A program made the translations under genes and the position numbers. From Alphaproteobacteria bacterium (GTDB taxonomy: Bacteria; Pseudomonadota; Alphaproteobacteria; UBA9219): DNA of 64,000 nucleotides. The stretch is taken from the NCBI GenBank assembly GCA_028690155.1, contig JAQVBU010000008.1:7593-71592 (forward strand), written 5' to 3'. Below are positions 7,856 through 49,856 of the stretch, one piece after another. Within the stretch, counting starts at the first letter, position 1. Every line of letters begins with the position of its first letter. The notes beneath the pieces are model-generated. The model was not told the origin of the DNA, did no database searches, and saw only the letters and a list, made by a program, of their open reading frames with translations.

Positions 7856-8377
7856 TCAGATGTTGACCGCTACTTCGGCTTTGCTATATCCGGTCACGCC
7901 TTTCGTCATCATTGCAAGGAAATCGTCCCGTGTGAAGTCAGACAACCTGAATATTTCCTCCGGCTTCATGCCGAGCTGTTTGCCAATCTCCTGTACTGTT
8001 TTCCCTTCCCCCAGCAGTTTCTTAACAATCGCCTTCATCGGTTCGAGCAAGTGCTGCCCACGCGCTCGGTTGTGGGTGATTGTGCCGTAGATGTCGTCGG
8101 CCTCGTTGTCGTGCTCCACTACAACTACGGGAACAATACCTCCAAGCCGGCTTAGAAGCGGTTCGCGCCCAGAAACCGTCCAGCGATGAAAGCCGTCAAT
8201 GATCGTCATGTCCGGCCTGACCACAAGCGGCATCGTCCACCCGTTGGTGAGAATCGACCGCGTGAGCAGTTCAAGGTTCTGCTGGCTGACCTTGTTTGGG
8301 TTGTAGTCATTCGGTTTCAGCACATCGCGGGGAACGAATTGCACGTTCCTCAACGGATACAAAAGATCGCTGTTCAT
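7856..8377 (-). CDS. ParB-like nuclease domain protein (IbrB-like)
   Basis: ParB/Srx motif IIDGFHRW and N-terminal NDYNPNK. Paired with the downstream PAPS-reductase-like gene. Confidence 0.6.
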   Translation of the reverse strand: MNSDLLYPLRNVQFVPRDVLKPNDYNPNKVSQQNLELLTRSILTNGWTMPLVVRPDMTIIDGFHRWTVSGREPLLSRLGGIVPVVVVEHDNEADDIYGTITHNRARGQHLLEPMKAIVKKLLGEGKTVQEIGKQLGMKPEEIFRLSDFTRDDFLAMMTKGVTGYSKAEVAVNI

Positions 8378-15933: not shown

Positions 15934-15962
15934 ATTATAGCCCCAGTTTGGGGCATTGTCAA
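15934..15962 (-). promoter_or_regulatory. sigma-70-type promoter TTGACA-N17-TATAAT with spacer palindrome GCCCC-N5-GGGGC (copy 1)
   Basis: Reverse complement reads TTGACAatgccccaaactggggcTATAAT, upstream of ssb. Confidence 0.6.
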
Positions 15963-39066: not shown

Positions 39067-39095
39067 ATTATAGCCCCAATACGGGGCATTGTCAA
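39067..39095 (-). promoter_or_regulatory. promoter-operator cassette copy 2 (TTGACA-N17-TATAAT, palindromic spacer)
   Basis: Reverse complement reads TTGACAatgccccgtattggggcTATAAT. Confidence 0.6.
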
Positions 39096-42833: not shown

Positions 42834-42862
42834 ATTATAGCCCCGTTTTGGGGCATTGTCAA
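42834..42862 (-). promoter_or_regulatory. promoter-operator cassette copy 3, in the divergent region between the 42804 gene and the cI-like gene
   Basis: Reverse complement reads TTGACAatgccccaaaacggggcTATAAT. Overlaps the 5' UTR of the cI-like gene. Confidence 0.6.
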
Positions 42863-42873
42863 GGAGGATTGGT

Positions 42874-43314
42874 ATGGCAATATTCGGTGAACGGCTTGTG
42901 GCGGCAAGGAAAGAGGCTGGCCTAACGCAATACCTGCTGGCTGAAAAACTCCAGCTCCCGCGTTCCACGATTTCTGGCTACGAAACGGAAGGGAAAGAGG
43001 CACCATATGCGATGCTGGCTCGCATTGCGACCCTGCTCGGCGTCACCACGGACTACCTTACGGGCAAGAGTGACAAACGGACAACTGCCGTCGAAACGGT
43101 TGTCATGGGGGAACTATCCAATCTACAGCGCGCGTACGACGCTGCCCGCCCTGCGGTACGATCCGCAGTTGCCGCAATGCTCGGAGATGTCTATGCAATC
43201 ATGGCTGAGGCGCTCGATAGCGAAAGCCCGGATAAACTAGCCGCCTGTGCCGAGTTTCTGTCGGCGGCGCGGCGCATGTATGCGCCGATGACCGGTGATG
43301 GACATGGCAAGTGA
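42874..43314 (+). CDS. cI-like repressor (XRE HTH)
   Basis: ATG at 42874 after GGAGG. LTQYLLAEKLQLPRSTISGYE HTH. Immediately upstream of the integrase. Confidence 0.6.
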   Translation: MAIFGERLVAARKEAGLTQYLLAEKLQLPRSTISGYETEGKEAPYAMLARIATLLGVTTDYLTGKSDKRTTAVETVVMGELSNLQRAYDAARPAVRSAVAAMLGDVYAIMAEALDSESPDKLAACAEFLSAARRMYAPMTGDGHGK

Positions 43315-44551
43315 GGCAAAGAAACCCGGACGGCGCAGGAAGGGGCAACGGAAGGATGGGCTGATCGCGGTCTATGGTGATTATGGGCGCCGGCCGGACG
43401 GATCACGCGACCGCAAGACCTTCTATGGGCATACGTGGGAAGAAGCCGACGCGCAGCGCAAGGCGTATGCTGAGGAACGAAAGCTCGGCGCGCCATTCGG
43501 AAGTGACAAGATCACCGTATCCGAGTGGTGCGACGAGTGGTTCAGCAACTACAAGCCCAAGGTGAAAGGGACGAACAGAGTATCCTATAACGCTTACATA
43601 GCTCGCTTGAAGAACGACCTCGGATTTGCGTTGGTGCGCGACGTTCTACATATCCACCTCCAGGCATCTTTGAACAAGATGTCGGGGATGTCAATGTCAT
43701 CCATCACAAAGTACAAGATGGTTTTGCAACAGGTATTTGCTCGTGCCAGGCAAAACAAGATCATTCGAGACGATCCGTCGGAAATGCTCGAAATCCCAGA
43801 GGGGACAGAGGGGGAGCACCGGGCCCTTGAACGCTGGGAGGCTGATTTCATTGTCGAGCATTGGTCGGAGTATCGCACCGGTTTATGGATAATGTTGATG
43901 CTGCTCGCAGGTCTGCGACGCGGCGAAATGTCGGCTCTGTCTTGGGACAGCATCGACTTGACGGCGAGAACGATCACCGTGTTCCAAGCCGCTGAGTATG
44001 TCTCGAATCAGCCGGTCATAAAGGATACCACAAAAACGGACGCGGGGATGCGTACATTGCCGATATGCGATGCCTTGTACGTCGCGCTATGCTCCGTACC
44101 CAAGGCGCACAGAACCGGTCTGGTCTGCCTGTCTGCGCACAAGAAGCCGTTATCGCAGAGAGCGATGGAAAAGGGCCTCGGAGGTTTCAACGTGGCAATG
44201 GAACGCCTCCTTAACGGTGAGCCGGTGAAACAACAGGGTAGACGGAAGGATGTCGAATGTGGTAAAATGACCGAGGAAGAAATCGCTGCGATGGAAAAGC
44301 GGGCGAAAGAGCGAAAGCGTTTTGAGATTCGCATGCATGATCTCCGCTATACGTTCGCCACTGCTCTGTACGATGCCGGGGTGGATGTAAAGACCGCGCA
44401 GTACTATCTCGGGCATGCCGACATCCGGATGACAATGGAACTCTACACAAGAATTTCCAAAGAGCGCGAAAATTTGGCTCGAGCAAAGACGATCAGTTTC
44501 CTCGATTCTTGGTTCAAAAAGGAGCCTCCAACAATGCGTTCAGAGCAGTAA
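43295..44551 (+). CDS. int: tyrosine-type site-specific integrase
   Basis: C-terminal catalytic box HDLRYTFATALYDAGVDVKTAQYYLGHADIRMTMELYTR (R..HxxR..Y). Confidence 0.85.
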   Translation: MMDMASEAKKPGRRRKGQRKDGLIAVYGDYGRRPDGSRDRKTFYGHTWEEADAQRKAYAEERKLGAPFGSDKITVSEWCDEWFSNYKPKVKGTNRVSYNAYIARLKNDLGFALVRDVLHIHLQASLNKMSGMSMSSITKYKMVLQQVFARARQNKIIRDDPSEMLEIPEGTEGEHRALERWEADFIVEHWSEYRTGLWIMLMLLAGLRRGEMSALSWDSIDLTARTITVFQAAEYVSNQPVIKDTTKTDAGMRTLPICDALYVALCSVPKAHRTGLVCLSAHKKPLSQRAMEKGLGGFNVAMERLLNGEPVKQQGRRKDVECGKMTEEEIAAMEKRAKERKRFEIRMHDLRYTFATALYDAGVDVKTAQYYLGHADIRMTMELYTRISKERENLARAKTISFLDSWFKKEPPTMRSEQ

Positions 44552-44554
44552 ATT

Positions 44555-44890
44555 TCGCGTCCGGCAGTAAAATGGCAGTAATTGGAAATGGGGCGCCGCA
44601 TGATTATTCAGTATTCCACGCTATGGATTAAATATATACGGAATATGCGCGGAATCAAGAATAAAATGCACTTTGAGGGGTTTGAATGGGGTTCAAGAGG
44701 CCGGAGGTTCAAATCCTCTCACCCAGACCAGAGAAACAGCACGGATTTACAAAAATCAGTGCTGTTTTATTGTATATATTCCACAAAAGTAGGCCATTCC
44801 TAGCCCTTTCTCACGTCATATAGTGGTTCTGAATCGTCCGTTCCGTCCGGGTTTTCCGCATCGTCGGCAGTAAAATGGCAGTAATGTGTT
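44555..44890. other. attP region: AT-rich, core flanked by 21-bp arm-type direct repeats
   Basis: cggcagtaaaatggcagtaat at 44562-44582 and 44865-44885 flank the tRNA-fragment core. AT-rich, in contrast to the GC-rich flanks. Confidence 0.55.
44686..44731 (+). other. tRNA 3' fragment (T-arm, acceptor 3' strand and CCA) = att core
   Basis: GGAGGTTCAAATCCTCTCACCCAGACCA; no complementary 5' acceptor strand upstream. Confidence 0.55.
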
Positions 44891-44951
44891 TTCGCGGGCA
44901 GTAGGCGGAACAGCTTTTTCTCAAAAAGCCCTATTTTGAATCAAATAAGTG

Positions 44952-44980
44952 TTGACATAGCCCCGATTTGGGGCTATAAT
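44952..44980 (+). promoter_or_regulatory. promoter-operator cassette copy 4 (plus strand)
   Basis: TTGACAtagccccgatttggggcTATAAT, followed by GGAGGG and ATG at 45007. Confidence 0.6.
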
Positions 44981-45006: not shown

Positions 45007-45586
45007 GATGGCAGGTTTGGTAATGGCGAACGACGGCCGTATCATCAATGCCCCGGTTTGGGTCTATACGAATGTATCGGCGTCCCAGAATGAGCTCGTC
45101 TACGCATATCATCTGGTGAATCGCCCTCCATCTATCGGAACCCATCCAAAAGATGACATAGGCGTCGTGAGTTATCGCTACCAGACGTACCAGGACACCA
45201 TCGGGCGTTGCGCATGGGGCATGGTGATCTACAACCGCCCTTTGACGCAGCGAGAAGTGGACGAGTACGAGCTTATACCCGACAGCGATACCGATTGTAG
45301 GTACAGGCAGTACGCGATCCTGCGCGCGGCTTTCAAAAAGGCCGGGGGCAGGAAGGTAGCCGAATGGAGCTTCCTGCTCTCGTGCGACGGTCTCGTATGG
45401 TTGTCGTGCTCGGAGACAAAAGCCAAGGAGCAGGCCAACGCGCTCGACCTCAAGGCGACTGAAAGCGGCGATGATCTGACGCGATATTTTGTTCGCAAAG
45501 TAGCGGACGCCTCCGACATCGCCAGAAAGGGCTTTCGGAGGACGTTTACATCGAACCCCATAAAGAGGGCGGCAGGCTGCAGCTGA
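45007..45586 (+). CDS. hypothetical protein, first gene of the rightward operon
   Basis: 193-aa ORF with good RBS just downstream of promoter copy 4; no recognised domain. Confidence 0.4.
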
Positions 45587-46249: not shown

Positions 46250-46325
46250 TGCCGCCGTAGCTCAATTGGCAGAGCGCTGGTCTTCCAAACCGGTTGTTAC
46301 GGGTTCGATCCCCGTCGACGGCTCC
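46250..46325 (+). tRNA. tRNA-Gly (anticodon UCC)
   Basis: Cloverleaf: acceptor GCCGCCG, D-arm GCTC-AATTGGCA-GAGC, anticodon loop CTTCCAA, T-loop TTCGATC, discriminator T, encoded CCA; one A-C mismatch in the acceptor stem. Confidence 0.7.
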
Positions 46326-46699: not shown

Positions 46700-47950
46700 G
46701 ATTCCGTCGGGACGAGCGGAGGCGGGGCGGCAAGCGCCCCCAGGATCGACATGCGCCTACCGCGCCGACTGGCTGTAGCAAATATGAATATGATAAGCGA
46801 CCCATAGACATGCAACGCCATCGTATCACAACGCTCTTGCCCGCAAGGGAGGCGAGGAAAGCAAGCGAACGACAAAGCGCAACGGGGAGGTTCCGGTCGA
46901 TCAACGTGTCGAAGCCGGAGTGTACCTACCGGGCAAGAGCGTTCCCCCCACCGACCGAGAAGGGATGATCGGCATGAGGAAGTAGCCAACGGAACCGAGA
47001 TACATTGGAAGCATCAGGCGCGCTCTGTGGGAGCGCGGGGCGCGCCTCCATGCGGCCTTAGCTCGCGGTAGAGCAGATGCAAGCGGACGGTTGCCAAAGA
47101 CGTAAAGGGGCGCAAAAACCTCGCCCCTCCCTCGCCGCCACCGACATCAGGTTTGGTCCAATTCCAAAGGGCCGCACCAGGGCTTTCCGGTTCAGCATCT
47201 CCCCTATTGCCTGGGGAGCGTCCCGGCCAGACCGGGCAACGGAAAACCGGCGTTCTTTGACGCTCTATCATCGAGATCCATTTCTTCCGCGAAGAAACGG
47301 GTGCGGAATGACGCGAACCATGTTTTCGGTTATGAGCGGCGTTCAGCAGCAACCGATGGCAGCCCGGAAAGACGGGCACATATGGGGATGGTAGTCCGAG
47401 AGCTGCTCGACGGCCGGCGCAGGTGCAAATCCTGCGGTCTCCACCAACCAGCCCGCGTGCCGTGCATCCGATAGGCCACCGGAAGCACGATGGGAGCAGC
47501 CGTTCCGAGAGGTGCACGACAAGGACGGAGGCCCAGTGTTCGGGAGTAGTGCGCAACCGCAAGCCCAAGAACGACAGCGGTGACAGCTCGGAAAGACGGC
47601 ACCATGCAGCAGTAACTCAACCGGTAGAGTAACGGCGCAACGCGTCGAGGTGGATGCAGGTTCGATTCCTGTCTGTTGCACAAATACTCCGTGGACACCG
47701 TTATGAATCCGGGATTCGCCCGCGTGAAGCGCAGTTCGATCTGCAAGCGAGATGGTTCGACTCCTGACCGCGCTTGGTGCATATCACGGGCAACGGAACA
47801 GTCGGATGGGTTTTAGGAGGTCCTGAACGAAGCCCCACAAGCCGCACGGCGCTATTGCGGTTGCGACAGTCAATCAAGAGGCGGTTTTCTCTGTCTGGCA
47901 GTCGGGAAAGACCGACACCTTTGTCTCACCGTCGCGAGTGAGTGGATTGA
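46700..47950. ncRNA. ORF-free, GC-rich, structured region with tRNA-like modules (candidate Y-RNA-like or other structured RNA)
   Basis: All six frames carry only short overlapping ORFs. Contains GGTTCGATTCC and GGTTCGACTCC T-loop-like motifs and many stem-forming segments. Confidence 0.4.
47606..47680 (+). ncRNA. tRNA-like element (75 nt) with canonical acceptor, D- and T-arms but a 6-bp/3-nt-loop hairpin in place of the anticodon arm
   Basis: Acceptor GCAGCAG/CTGTTGC (one G-U pair), D-arm ACTC-AACCGGTA-GAGT, hairpin CGGCGC-AAC-GCGTCG, T-arm GCAGG-TTCGATT-CCTGT. Confidence 0.45.
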
Positions 47951-48061
47951 AATGACCCGGATATCGGAAGGCTCGACACCTTCACACAATTGATCGACGC
48001 CAGCAGCAACAAACAATGCATTGCAAAAGCATCAAGAATGCGTCGAGAAAGGGGTATTGGG

Positions 48062-49600
48062 ATGGATAACTTCATGGAGGCGCTGGAAAGACAAGCCTCG
48101 GAGGCCCGGCTTGTGCGGACGGAAAACGGTGCGCTCGGTCACGGAAGCACCGGATCGGCACTGCTTGATCTGAACTTCACCGCTTCTTCCTACAGAGACA
48201 GGGACGATTCTGCCGTCTGGACAGCTTTCAGGCGCGCGTATCGCGAAGACCCTAAGAGCGCGGTCGCATGGCTGTTCTTCTCCCGCGACGCCAGAGGGGG
48301 CATGGGCGAGCGTCGCTTTTTCCGGGTGGTCATGGAGCACATGGCAAGCAGCTACCCCGATGTGGTGGAGGCACTGCTCCCTGTTATCCCCGAGTATGGC
48401 AGATGGGACGATGTGCTTTCGTTGCTCGACACCAGTTGCCGCATGCGAAGCTCGATTGCGAAACTCGTTATGGCACAACTGCAATACGATGAAATCTGCC
48501 TGACCAATGGCAAGCCCGTGTCATTGCTGGCGAAGTGGATGCCCAGTGAAAACGCGACGAGCGAGCCGACGAAGCGCCATGCGCACTTGCTTGCAAATCT
48601 GCTTGGGTACTCCCCGAGACAGTACAGGAAGAAGCTCTCTGCATTGCGCAAATATCTCCGCGTGACCGAGGTCGATATGTCCGCGAACCAATGGGGGGAG
48701 ATTGACTACGCGCGCGTCCCCTCTCGCGCGAACCTCATTTACAAGGATGCGTTCATGAGGCATGACGAGGATCGGCGCGCGGCGTATTTGGAAGCCGTCA
48801 ACAGCGGAGAGGCGAAGATCAATGCCGGCGTGCTTTTCCCGCACGACATTGTTGCTCGGTATGCCGGTTGCGCCTCGCGTTACGAGAGCACCATCGACGG
48901 TGCGCTGGAAGCGCTGTGGCGCGCGCTGCCCAATACTATGACTGGCAATGGAAATGTCCTCGTTGTGCGGGACGGCAGCGGAAGCATGGGTAGCAATATC
49001 GGGAAAACCTCCGTGCGCGCTTTGGATGTTTCGACGGCACTCGCGATCTATTTTGCTGAACGGTGCACCGGAGCGTTCAAGGACAAGTACATCACGTTCT
49101 CGGCATGCCCTGAAATCGTCTCGCTCGTCGGGATGGAAACACTCATGGAAAAGCTCCGCGAATCGTACCGGTATGACGATTGCTCGAACACCAACATTGA
49201 AGCGACATTCGACCTGATCTTGAGCGCGGCGGTAATAAACGGAATGAACCAAGCCGACTTGCCGCGCATCGTGCTGGTAATCTCCGATATGGAGTTCGAT
49301 GGGGCCGTCTATGGCCGGAAAGCCGGCGCGACACTGTTCAGTAATATTGCGGCGCGGTTCGTTCGAGCTGGCTATGCTCTACCGAAGCTGGCGTTCTGGA
49401 ACGTCAACTCCAGAACGGATACAGTACCAATGAAGGAAAATGAGAACGGCGTCGTTCTTGTAAGCGGGTTCTCTCCTGCCGTCGTGAAGATGGTACTTTC
49501 CGGAGAGCTCGACCCCTACATGGCCATGATGAACGTTCTGGAATCCGACAGATACGATATGGTGCGGGAAGCAATCAAGGAGGTGGAGTTCACGGTTTGA
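48062..49600 (+). CDS. DUF2828-like protein with C-terminal vWA domain (Ro60/TROVE-vWA-like architecture)
   Basis: ATG at 48062 after an AGGGG RBS. N-terminal LVRTENGALGHGSTGSALLDLNF...RDARGGMGERRFFR region. MIDAS-type LVVRDGSGSMGS (DxSxS) at the start of the C-terminal domain. Confidence 0.5.
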   Translation: MDNFMEALERQASEARLVRTENGALGHGSTGSALLDLNFTASSYRDRDDSAVWTAFRRAYREDPKSAVAWLFFSRDARGGMGERRFFRVVMEHMASSYPDVVEALLPVIPEYGRWDDVLSLLDTSCRMRSSIAKLVMAQLQYDEICLTNGKPVSLLAKWMPSENATSEPTKRHAHLLANLLGYSPRQYRKKLSALRKYLRVTEVDMSANQWGEIDYARVPSRANLIYKDAFMRHDEDRRAAYLEAVNSGEAKINAGVLFPHDIVARYAGCASRYESTIDGALEALWRALPNTMTGNGNVLVVRDGSGSMGSNIGKTSVRALDVSTALAIYFAERCTGAFKDKYITFSACPEIVSLVGMETLMEKLRESYRYDDCSNTNIEATFDLILSAAVINGMNQADLPRIVLVISDMEFDGAVYGRKAGATLFSNIAARFVRAGYALPKLAFWNVNSRTDTVPMKENENGVVLVSGFSPAVVKMVLSGELDPYMAMMNVLESDRYDMVREAIKEVEFTV

Positions 49601-49739: not shown

Positions 49740-49856
49740 GGCGGTGTAGCTCAATTGGGAGAGCATCTAAGGTGCTTCGGTGAAGCGCGTACAGCAATCC
49801 CCTATTGGACTGTTAATCCGAGGATGCGGGTTCGATCCCCGCCGCCGCCACTCTCA
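49740..49856 (+). tRNA. tRNA-Asn(GUU)-like gene with a 39-nt hairpin insertion between the D-arm and anticodon stem (possible pseudo-tRNA or intron-bearing)
   Basis: Acceptor GGCGGTG/CGCCGCC, D-arm GCTC-AATTGGGA-GAGC, anticodon arm TTGGA-CTGTTAA-TCCGA, T-arm GCGGG-TTCGATC-CCCGC. Extra GCTTC-GGT-GAAGC hairpin at 49766-49804. Confidence 0.45.

Follow-up and report, generated by a model that had tools for sequence, protein, structure and literature searches.

A probable intact attP with a tRNA-Pro(GGG) core and doubled arm-type repeats in an uncultured ~95-kb temperate phage

We suggest that positions 44544-44904 of the window analysed here (the whole stretch of 64,000 nucleotides, taken from one MAG contig) form the intact attP of a ~95-kb temperate phage, lambda-type in its working, and we put the probability of this reading at roughly 0.9. 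A core identical to a bacterial attB, a tyrosine integrase gene adjoining it and arm-type repeats on both of its sides are all present (Table 1). Because both arms stand around a single core and phage genes lie to the left and to the right, the DNA would derive from an excised, replicating or virion form and not from a prophage junction. The first-pass annotation had likewise read an intact attP beside the integrase of an element that is not integrated here, and the arms, the unique core, the phage genes and the relatives described below all agree with it.

Table 1. Coordinates of the integrase gene, the proposed attP and its neighbouring elements in the window.
Feature	Coordinates	Strand	Remarks
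Tyrosine integrase gene	43295..44551	+	418 aa from GTG (417 or 415 aa in public gene calls)
Putative third P-arm site AGCAGTAA, degenerate	44544..44551	+	one mismatch to GGCAGTAA; 19 bp upstream of doublet; overlaps int stop codon
P-arm doublet, putative arm-type sites	44562..44582	+	GGCAGTAA at 44563 and 44574, 11 bp apart
Common core	44682..44730	+	49 bp identical to nt 28-76 of host tRNA-Pro(GGG) gene (attB)
Anticodon loop ATGGGGT	44686..44692	+	flanked by inverted stem arms TTGA/TCAA (44682-44696); Rfam tRNA alignment
Terminator hairpin with T-run	44734..44767	+	inverted repeat; RNA fold -18.7 kcal/mol, z = -6.1
P'-arm doublet, putative arm-type sites	44865..44885	+	GGCAGTAA at 44866 and 44877; orientation as P-arm
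Putative third P'-arm site GGCAGTAG	44897..44904	+	aligns with conserved GGCAGT column in relatives
Sigma-70 promoter TTGACA-17-TATAAT	44952..44980	+	GCCCC-N5-GGGGC palindrome in spacer; 12/12 consensus positions

The arms are built on a direct repeat of 21 nt, CGGCAGTAAAATGGCAGTAAT, which had been noticed at the outset and whose two copies, coextensive with the doublets of Table 1, are indeed exact. When up to three mismatches are allowed, these remain the only two matches in 64 kb, and 100 shuffles of the window returned none, so that none is expected by chance. Each repeat had also been described as holding two half-sites; correspondingly, GGCAGTAA occurs four times in the whole 64-kb window, every time in the att region, on the + strand and as one member of a doublet with 11-bp spacing. 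The doublets thus stand, but the total of two sites per side does not, as copies one mismatch away from GGCAGTAA lie outside the doublets on the left and on the right and bring the number to three per side if they are counted. The left-hand one may, from its sequence, serve as a third P-arm site. All of these sites are distinct from the core sequence that they flank. The G+C content is 44.6% over 44555-44890 and 54.7% over the window as a whole, which leaves the earlier description of it as AT-rich only modestly true.

Between the arms lies the 3' part of a tRNA gene. Its identity to tRNA-Pro(GGG) is 49/49 and is bounded on the left by a mismatch at 44681. It begins with 4 nt from the 5' side of the anticodon stem and continues through the anticodon loop, variable loop and T arm to the 3' strand of the acceptor stem and CCA. 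The Rfam tRNA model, whose gathering score is 29, reaches only 13.6 bits on 44671-44727; the alignment gives anticodon GGG and is good for the anticodon arm, the variable loop, the T arm and the 3' strand of the acceptor, with no D arm and no paired 5' acceptor strand. ARAGORN called no tRNA at the att region, where the 5' half is absent, and neither it nor a sequence search found a second core copy or a full tRNA-Pro in the 64-kb window. The fragment had been taken to lack its 5' partner, which is what we see, and to extend over 44686-44731, from the T-arm onward, which is not: it runs from 44682 to 44730 and begins in the anticodon stem. Its last 28 nt, GGAGGTTCAAATCCTCTCACCCAGACCA (44703-44730), are present in a single copy in the window and close tRNA-Pro genes at their 3' end in several viral contigs; the longer fragment made of GAATGGGGTTCAAGAGGCC and this 28-mer is found in three other viral contigs with unrelated flanks.

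A scan of genomes, one per species, with a 47-nt fragment returned at least 119 stretches, almost all of them from Christensenellales, other Clostridia and unclassified Bacillota MAGs. Complete tRNA-Pro(GGG) genes, CTGGGTGTGGCGCAGTTTGGTAGCGTGCTTGAATGGGGTTCAAGAGGCCGGAGGTTCAAATCCTCTCACCCAGACCA, account for 111 of the 122 copies examined (genome-scan loci and three viral contigs), and an exact match to the core is found in the tRNA-Pro(GGG) of at least 111 genomes, mostly Christensenellales/Clostridia MAGs. The host tRNA gene that the first-pass annotation had proposed to look for is therefore tRNA-Pro(GGG). Every host copy has its own hairpin or terminator downstream. Seven independent copies, each an attP or an attR, have their left limit of identity at tRNA nt 23-30, which places strand exchange at or to the right of the anticodon loop; the loop itself, with core-type Int sites around it, is the probable strand-exchange (overlap) region, and the exact cut sites are deduced from this arrangement.

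We also considered that the fragment might be a decayed phage tRNA gene, and the repeats sites for some other protein, for example a promoter regulator, with no att site at all. Phage tRNA genes do lie nearby, at 46251 and 47606, as does a tRNA-like element at 49740, and the P' repeats are 47-86 bp upstream of a strong promoter. Yet decay would scatter changes and not leave a 49/49 host identity that stops in the anticodon stem; the repeats bracket the core, not the promoter; the same fragment is found beside unrelated integrases that have repeats of their own (L004 and L007, below); and integrated elements occupy this very tRNA gene. We find this explanation scarcely credible.

The limits of the core can be read a second time, independently of the tRNA identity, from assembly breaks. 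Logan k=31 contigs of SRR22315505 match the window at 100% identity. The last position of one of them is 44711 and the first position of another is 44701. Both points fall exactly 30 nt (k-1) inward from a core edge, the left one for the first contig and the right one for the second, and a relative (L193) has the same k=31 break 30 nt past its own start of identity. Breaks at both core edges imply that a second molecule in SRR22315505 shares the 49 bp and differs on both sides of them, so this sample holds the host tRNA-Pro locus (attB, or attL and attR) alongside the phage. The same branching of the k=31 graph means that the join across the core rests on longer k-mers or read pairs, and an attP made in silico has to be weighed: the prophage would be integrated, and the assembler would have joined attR to attL through the 49-bp core into a false circle. 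For the window's contig taken alone, a path through the core at k below 50 is conceivable. The usual final k (55 to 141), however, exceeds 49 bp; the attP join is carried by independent assemblies of relatives from several samples, a k141 contig among them; and the contigs cluster at 94-94.9 kb without host flanks. In the k141 assembly (L197), which spans int, attP and the DarA gene, k is longer than the 49-bp repeat, so a core-mediated mis-join is impossible and the join is read-supported there. We regard an artefact of this kind as very unlikely.

These relatives speak for the intact attP in two further ways. Integrases 62% identical to that of the window are encoded on contigs of 93,987, 94,457 and 94,787 bp (from the relatives in IMG/VR, ENA, JGI and Logan), with int at ~63 kb from the start, ~25 kb from the start or 270 bp from the end; such differing offsets on ~94-kb contigs indicate circularly permuted assemblies of one genome size, and we infer from them that the window's source contig (94,869 bp) is circular as well. 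The relatives also share a gene order, namely SbcCD-like protein, regulators, int, arm-core-arm, DarA_C and DnaN. When their int-DarA spacers are aligned (alignment A1; also L008, a relative recovered by the arm motif), the sequences prove diverged and unequal in length outside a few conserved blocks: the doublets of the P arm (GGCAGTAAAATGGCAGTA) and the P' arm, the tRNA core between them, additional GGCAGT sites and the promoter. GGCAGTAAAATGGCAGTA is invariant while the neighbouring spacer has diverged, and three extra GGCAGT(A) sites are found in the relatives near the position of 44897. This conservation footprint is, to our mind, the best computational evidence that the repeats would be functional sites tied to the core, and the perfect conservation of core and arms argues for an att site that is in use. 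A peptide-pattern search of viral contigs with Int found no relative, and a megablast of 36-56 kb of the window against phage and plasmid collections gave no match. A relative on a Logan contig (L195, 11255-11483, SRR32206243) lacks, cleanly from one of its 30-nt arm repeats to the other, all of the sequence in between, and the core with it. The length of that repeat is k-1 at k=31, which makes an assembly shortcut likelier than a real, attP-less deletion variant.

What such a site looks like once it has been used is seen in a relative with a 37%-identical integrase on a single MAG contig, JAEZTL010000041. At one place (L062, 4355-4431) a full tRNA-Pro(GGG) is followed by a hairpin and then by GGGGCTCAAATGGGGCTCAG; about 39 kb downstream (L101) the int gene ends in GGGGCTCAAATGGGGTTCAG and 40 nt further on there is a tRNA fragment with a different (host) terminator. 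These are attL and attR, respectively, with int beside the fragment, as the orientation in the window demands, and the 11-bp-spaced arm doublets split to opposite ends of the prophage, in line with the expectation, voiced at the start, that integration would carry the arms to opposite ends. On two further contigs a full tRNA is accompanied by a fragment at a distance of 27.5 kb in one case and 41 kb in the other. Among the matches listed in the genome scan the arm motif is absent, and there was no integrated copy of the window's phage, nor of any phage with GGCAGTAAAATGGCAGTA arms.

Integrated relatives also bear on whether the window might itself show the attR of a prophage, that is, int, P arm, a duplicated tRNA fragment and then host DNA. 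Their attR (L101, L202) does have int and, after it, a tRNA 3' fragment pointing the same way, and host tRNA sequence is present in the same sample. A junction of this kind would have one arm, with host genes beyond the core, whereas in the window a second arm doublet lies to the right of the core, the right-hand DNA is phage (from DarA_C-like to SSB-like) and syntenic with the permuted 94-kb contigs of the relatives, and there is neither a full tRNA-Pro nor a second core in 64 kb. Host genes immediately to the right of 44900 were what the first-pass annotation had named as evidence against its own reading; phage genes stand there instead. We consider an attR exceedingly unlikely.

L004 and L007 are unrelated phages with other integrases in which the same tRNA fragment lies beside int between flanking repeats of their own; in L004 the integrase is 20% identical to that of the window and the plan is the same, with repeats GGGGCAACC/GGCAAC. 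At L202 (5250-5640) a 48%-identical integrase stands beside host-like AraC and oxidoreductase genes, with the arm doublet TGTGGTAAAAATGTGGTAGTA 12 nt past the int stop; a 3' fragment resembling tRNA-Pro(CGG), with TCA as its last letters, comes next. This fragment is followed by arrays of 12-nt repeats, of CTACTACATACT type and TCTACTGCGTAG three times (reverse complement GCAGTAGA), which the arms of another element may have left behind at this site. L202 was tried as a second integrated example and dropped, as the arm-like 12-mer arrays after the core leave a junction that is not clean. A viral contig (L003, 2694-2967, - strand) contains two tRNA-Pro 3' fragments 246 bp apart, one starting in the anticodon loop and the other in the T arm, an arrangement that suggests successive integrations, or their remnants, at one tRNA-Pro site.

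The integrase consists of an N-terminal part of ~70 aa, a SAM-like core-binding domain and a catalytic domain. It matches Pfam Phage_integrase (PF00589, 4.8e-22) and Phage_int_SAM_3 as well as the PHROG integrase family phrog_1 (5.6e-54), and the full catalytic set can be read from its sequence (GLR208, K247, H348-x-x-R351, H374, Y384). It is 100% identical to NCBI MDD3029832.1, which is encoded on the 94,869-bp MAG contig. Among solved structures Tn1549 Int (6EMY) is the nearest, at E 5e-24 when the family profile is used and at 1.2e-10 for the single sequence. A profile alignment to lambda Int begins at the core-binding domain of the latter, profile position 62 corresponding to lambda residue 69, and this start implies an N-terminal domain of lambda-like size. 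In the AF2 model, residues 1-82 form two long strands, a short bridge and then a helix, with pLDDT 81-86 over residues 21-60. Searches with this domain gave no match to a Pfam arm-binding family and no significant match in Foldseek; to judge by the model, an arm-binding fold is plausible.

All of the ~50 window proteins scanned are phage-like. To the left of the att region, on the - strand, lie genes for the small and large terminase subunits, portal, a Mu-F-like head protein, a PAPS-reductase-like protein and methyltransferases, as well as RecU, HNH endonucleases, a DnaC/IstB-like loader, a Lin1244-type replication protein and SbcCD-like proteins; HTH regulators surround int. To the right follow a DarA_C-like protein, a DUF2828/DUF7788 protein (phrog_850), DnaN and a C5 methylase, along with a clamp-loader-like ATPase, a Mom-like protein and an SSB-like protein. 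The initial impression of phage-type genes on both sides is thus borne out, with terminase and portal on the left and DarA_C-like, DnaN and Mom-like proteins on the right.

The first-pass annotation had left a choice between a free, circular phage and a phage-plasmid, and of these the free form has held up. A phage-plasmid kept episomally, for which the attP would be a relic, is compatible with what we see inasmuch as an attP configuration fits any extrachromosomal state, and one protein in the window, small and encoded at 7856-8377, has a ParB_N domain. It is the only such protein, though, and its gene neighbours that of the small terminase subunit, as is common in phages; the ~50 proteins scanned in the 64-kb window include no ParA, no plasmid Rep and no partition module; and the catalytic motifs of Int are intact, as are the perfectly conserved core and arms. 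A phage-plasmid is hence a most improbable source of this DNA, and a free phage form remains our reading.

Immediately after the core lies a hairpin that a simple terminator scan did not flag and that we propose, from its sequence, as a phage-supplied terminator for the tRNA rebuilt at attL. The right limit of the att region is set by a promoter reading into the DarA_C-like gene (45008-45586). Its pattern, TTGACA-NN-GCCCC-N5-GGGGC-TATAAT, occurs in four perfect copies in the window, where 0 are expected: besides the one in Table 1, at 15934-15962, 39067-39095 and 42834-42862, these three on the - strand. One copy is divergent from an HTH gene just upstream of int. Judged by sequence, the four look like a co-regulated set with a built-in operator or hairpin. 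There is also a possibility, weaker than the 'arm code' raised below, that Int, when it occupies the P' arm (47-86 bp upstream of the conserved palindrome promoter), couples the state of integration to expression of the DarA-like early operon.

Several other elements of the window deserve mention in their own right. ARAGORN calls two phage tRNA genes, tRNA-Gly(TCC) at 46251 and tRNA-Val(AAC) at 47606. The latter (47606-47681, + strand) lies just upstream of the phrog_850 gene; its anticodon, AAC, is unusual for bacteria, and its anticodon arm exceeds that of the Rfam model by 3 nt. A tRNA-like element of 111 nt at 49740-49850 (+ strand) scores 45.7 bits to Rfam tRNA, above the gathering score, and is left uncalled by ARAGORN; a 52-nt insert replaces its anticodon arm. 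It lies directly downstream of the DUF2828/DUF7788 'RNA-binding' gene (phrog_850, 47990-49600). Ro/TROVE-like proteins are often encoded beside tRNA-mimicking Y RNAs (YrlA), and we note the element as a candidate for a phage Y-RNA-like gene or an intron-bearing tRNA. Finally, a 52-nt inverted repeat (24385-24436/60015-60066), 96% complementary and with its arms 35.6 kb apart inside coding regions, may reflect a gene segment duplicated on opposite strands.

In the mechanism that we propose for this attP, by analogy with lambda-type systems and with tRNA-targeting attP sites (PMC10865867), the N-terminal part of the integrase would contact the GGCAGTA(A) arm sites, a doublet and a weaker site on each side, all in direct orientation, and the inverted repeat of the anticodon stem (TTGA/TCAA) in the 49-bp core would be recognised by the core-binding and catalytic domains. 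The proposed target is GGCAGTAAAATGGCAGTA for N-terminal residues 1-70 and TTGAATGGGGTTCAA for the C-terminal part. Int would bridge arm sites and core, and the phage would be inserted by an exchange of strands with the host tRNA-Pro(GGG) gene, for which the 7-nt anticodon loop is the likeliest place. The resulting attL would consist of the host tRNA 5' part, phage nt 28-76, the phage terminator and the P' arm, followed by the DarA-like gene, and attR of int, the P arm, the tRNA 3' fragment and host DNA. Since the phage copy of the core is identical to that of the host, the tRNA would stay functional after integration. The binding of Int to the arms and the exact point of crossover should both be understood as predictions. 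Lysogeny of the tRNA-dependent kind (PMC10865867) was entertained and rejected: the core rebuilds the tRNA, and the tRNAs of the phage are Gly and Val, not Pro.

The arm sequence was also followed beyond these relatives. A metagenome scan with an 18-mer arm motif found 63 loci, and an integrase lies beside the motif only in L171, in L174 and, doubtfully, in L155. None of the 63 has a tRNA-Pro core or any other similarity to the window, and most of the matches look like chance. In L171 (640-835) and L174 (1140-1300, - strand), TGGCAGTAAAATGGCAGTA follows directly after the int stop codon, and the integrases are only 26-27% identical to the window's Int, over the catalytic half. L171 has TGGCAGTAAAATGGCAGTA twice, 161 bp apart, around a hairpin; L174 has it near a reverse-oriented tRNA-like 3' end, seemingly a different tRNA fragment. 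At L131 (654-682) and L169 (802-830) there are three tandem half-sites each. Closer relatives, with integrases 48% and 37% identical, use other doublets in the same 11-bp layout, TGTGGTAAAAATGTGGTAGTA and GGGGCTCAAATGGGGCTCAG, respectively. That TGGCAGTAAAATGGCAGTA is a portable 'arm code' is a tentative idea, and one we hold to be rather unlikely; were it true, arm-binding modules and their sites would be exchanged independently of core specificity among Clostridia phages.

Among known systems, the integrases of Tn1549 and Tn916 (6EMY) offer the closest solved catalytic and core-binding domains, and the Tn916 arm site, which we take to be about GTAGTAAAT, presumably resembles GCAGTAAAAT. They are, however, integrases of conjugative transposons, which tolerate heterologous overlaps and AT-rich targets, in contrast to the defined tRNA core found here. 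Lambda attP and its heterobivalent Int, with P1/P2 and P'1-3 arms, share with the present site an adjacent tyrosine integrase, a core held in common with attB, arm-type repeats on both sides within a site of ~360 bp and an N-terminal domain of lambda-like size ahead of the core-binding domain. The differences are that the core is here a 49-bp tRNA 3' part and in lambda 15 bp in an intergenic attB, that the arm sites are here all direct repeats in 11-bp doublets, that no sequence similarity of the window's Int to the lambda arm-binding domain was detected with Pfam or Foldseek, and that no accessory-factor sites (IHF, Xis, Fis) were recognised here. Williams is said to have set apart, in 2002, an anticodon-loop class of tRNA integration sites. 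Like the sites of that class, the core starts in the anticodon region and takes up the whole 3' half of the tRNA; its identity starts at nt 28, with TTGA-ATGGGGT-TCAA at 44682-44696, which is the anticodon-loop sublocation. In mycobacteriophage attP sites, for example those of Boilgate and Omega, the 3' half of a tRNA is covered by a core of 43-44 bp, and arm sites stand in pairs to its left and right (PMC10865867). The likeness extends to a core that runs from the anticodon region to the tRNA 3' end, 49 bp in our case, and to a tRNA rebuilt at attL (PMC10865867); the host clade, here Clostridia/Christensenellales, and the tRNA, here Pro(GGG), are different.

As regards mechanism, this site adds nothing to the lambda paradigm; it is a standard attP in a new, uncultured phage, for which attP, attB and a probable crossover region are now defined. 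An int-attP cassette derived from it could become an integration vector for gut Clostridia that are hard to engineer, such as Christensenella. That the contig represents a free phage form matters for calling the phage active as opposed to a dormant prophage. Any host of the phage has to possess this tRNA-Pro(GGG) gene. The MAG to which the contig belongs is labelled Alphaproteobacteria; the core, in contrast, matches tRNA-Pro(GGG) almost solely in Christensenellales/Clostridia, where the host of the phage is therefore predicted, and the label is probably a binning error for the phage contig. To the extent that the sequence of the core points to Christensenellales/Clostridia as the host, the att site provides a sequence-based host assignment for an uncultured temperate phage of ~95 kb.
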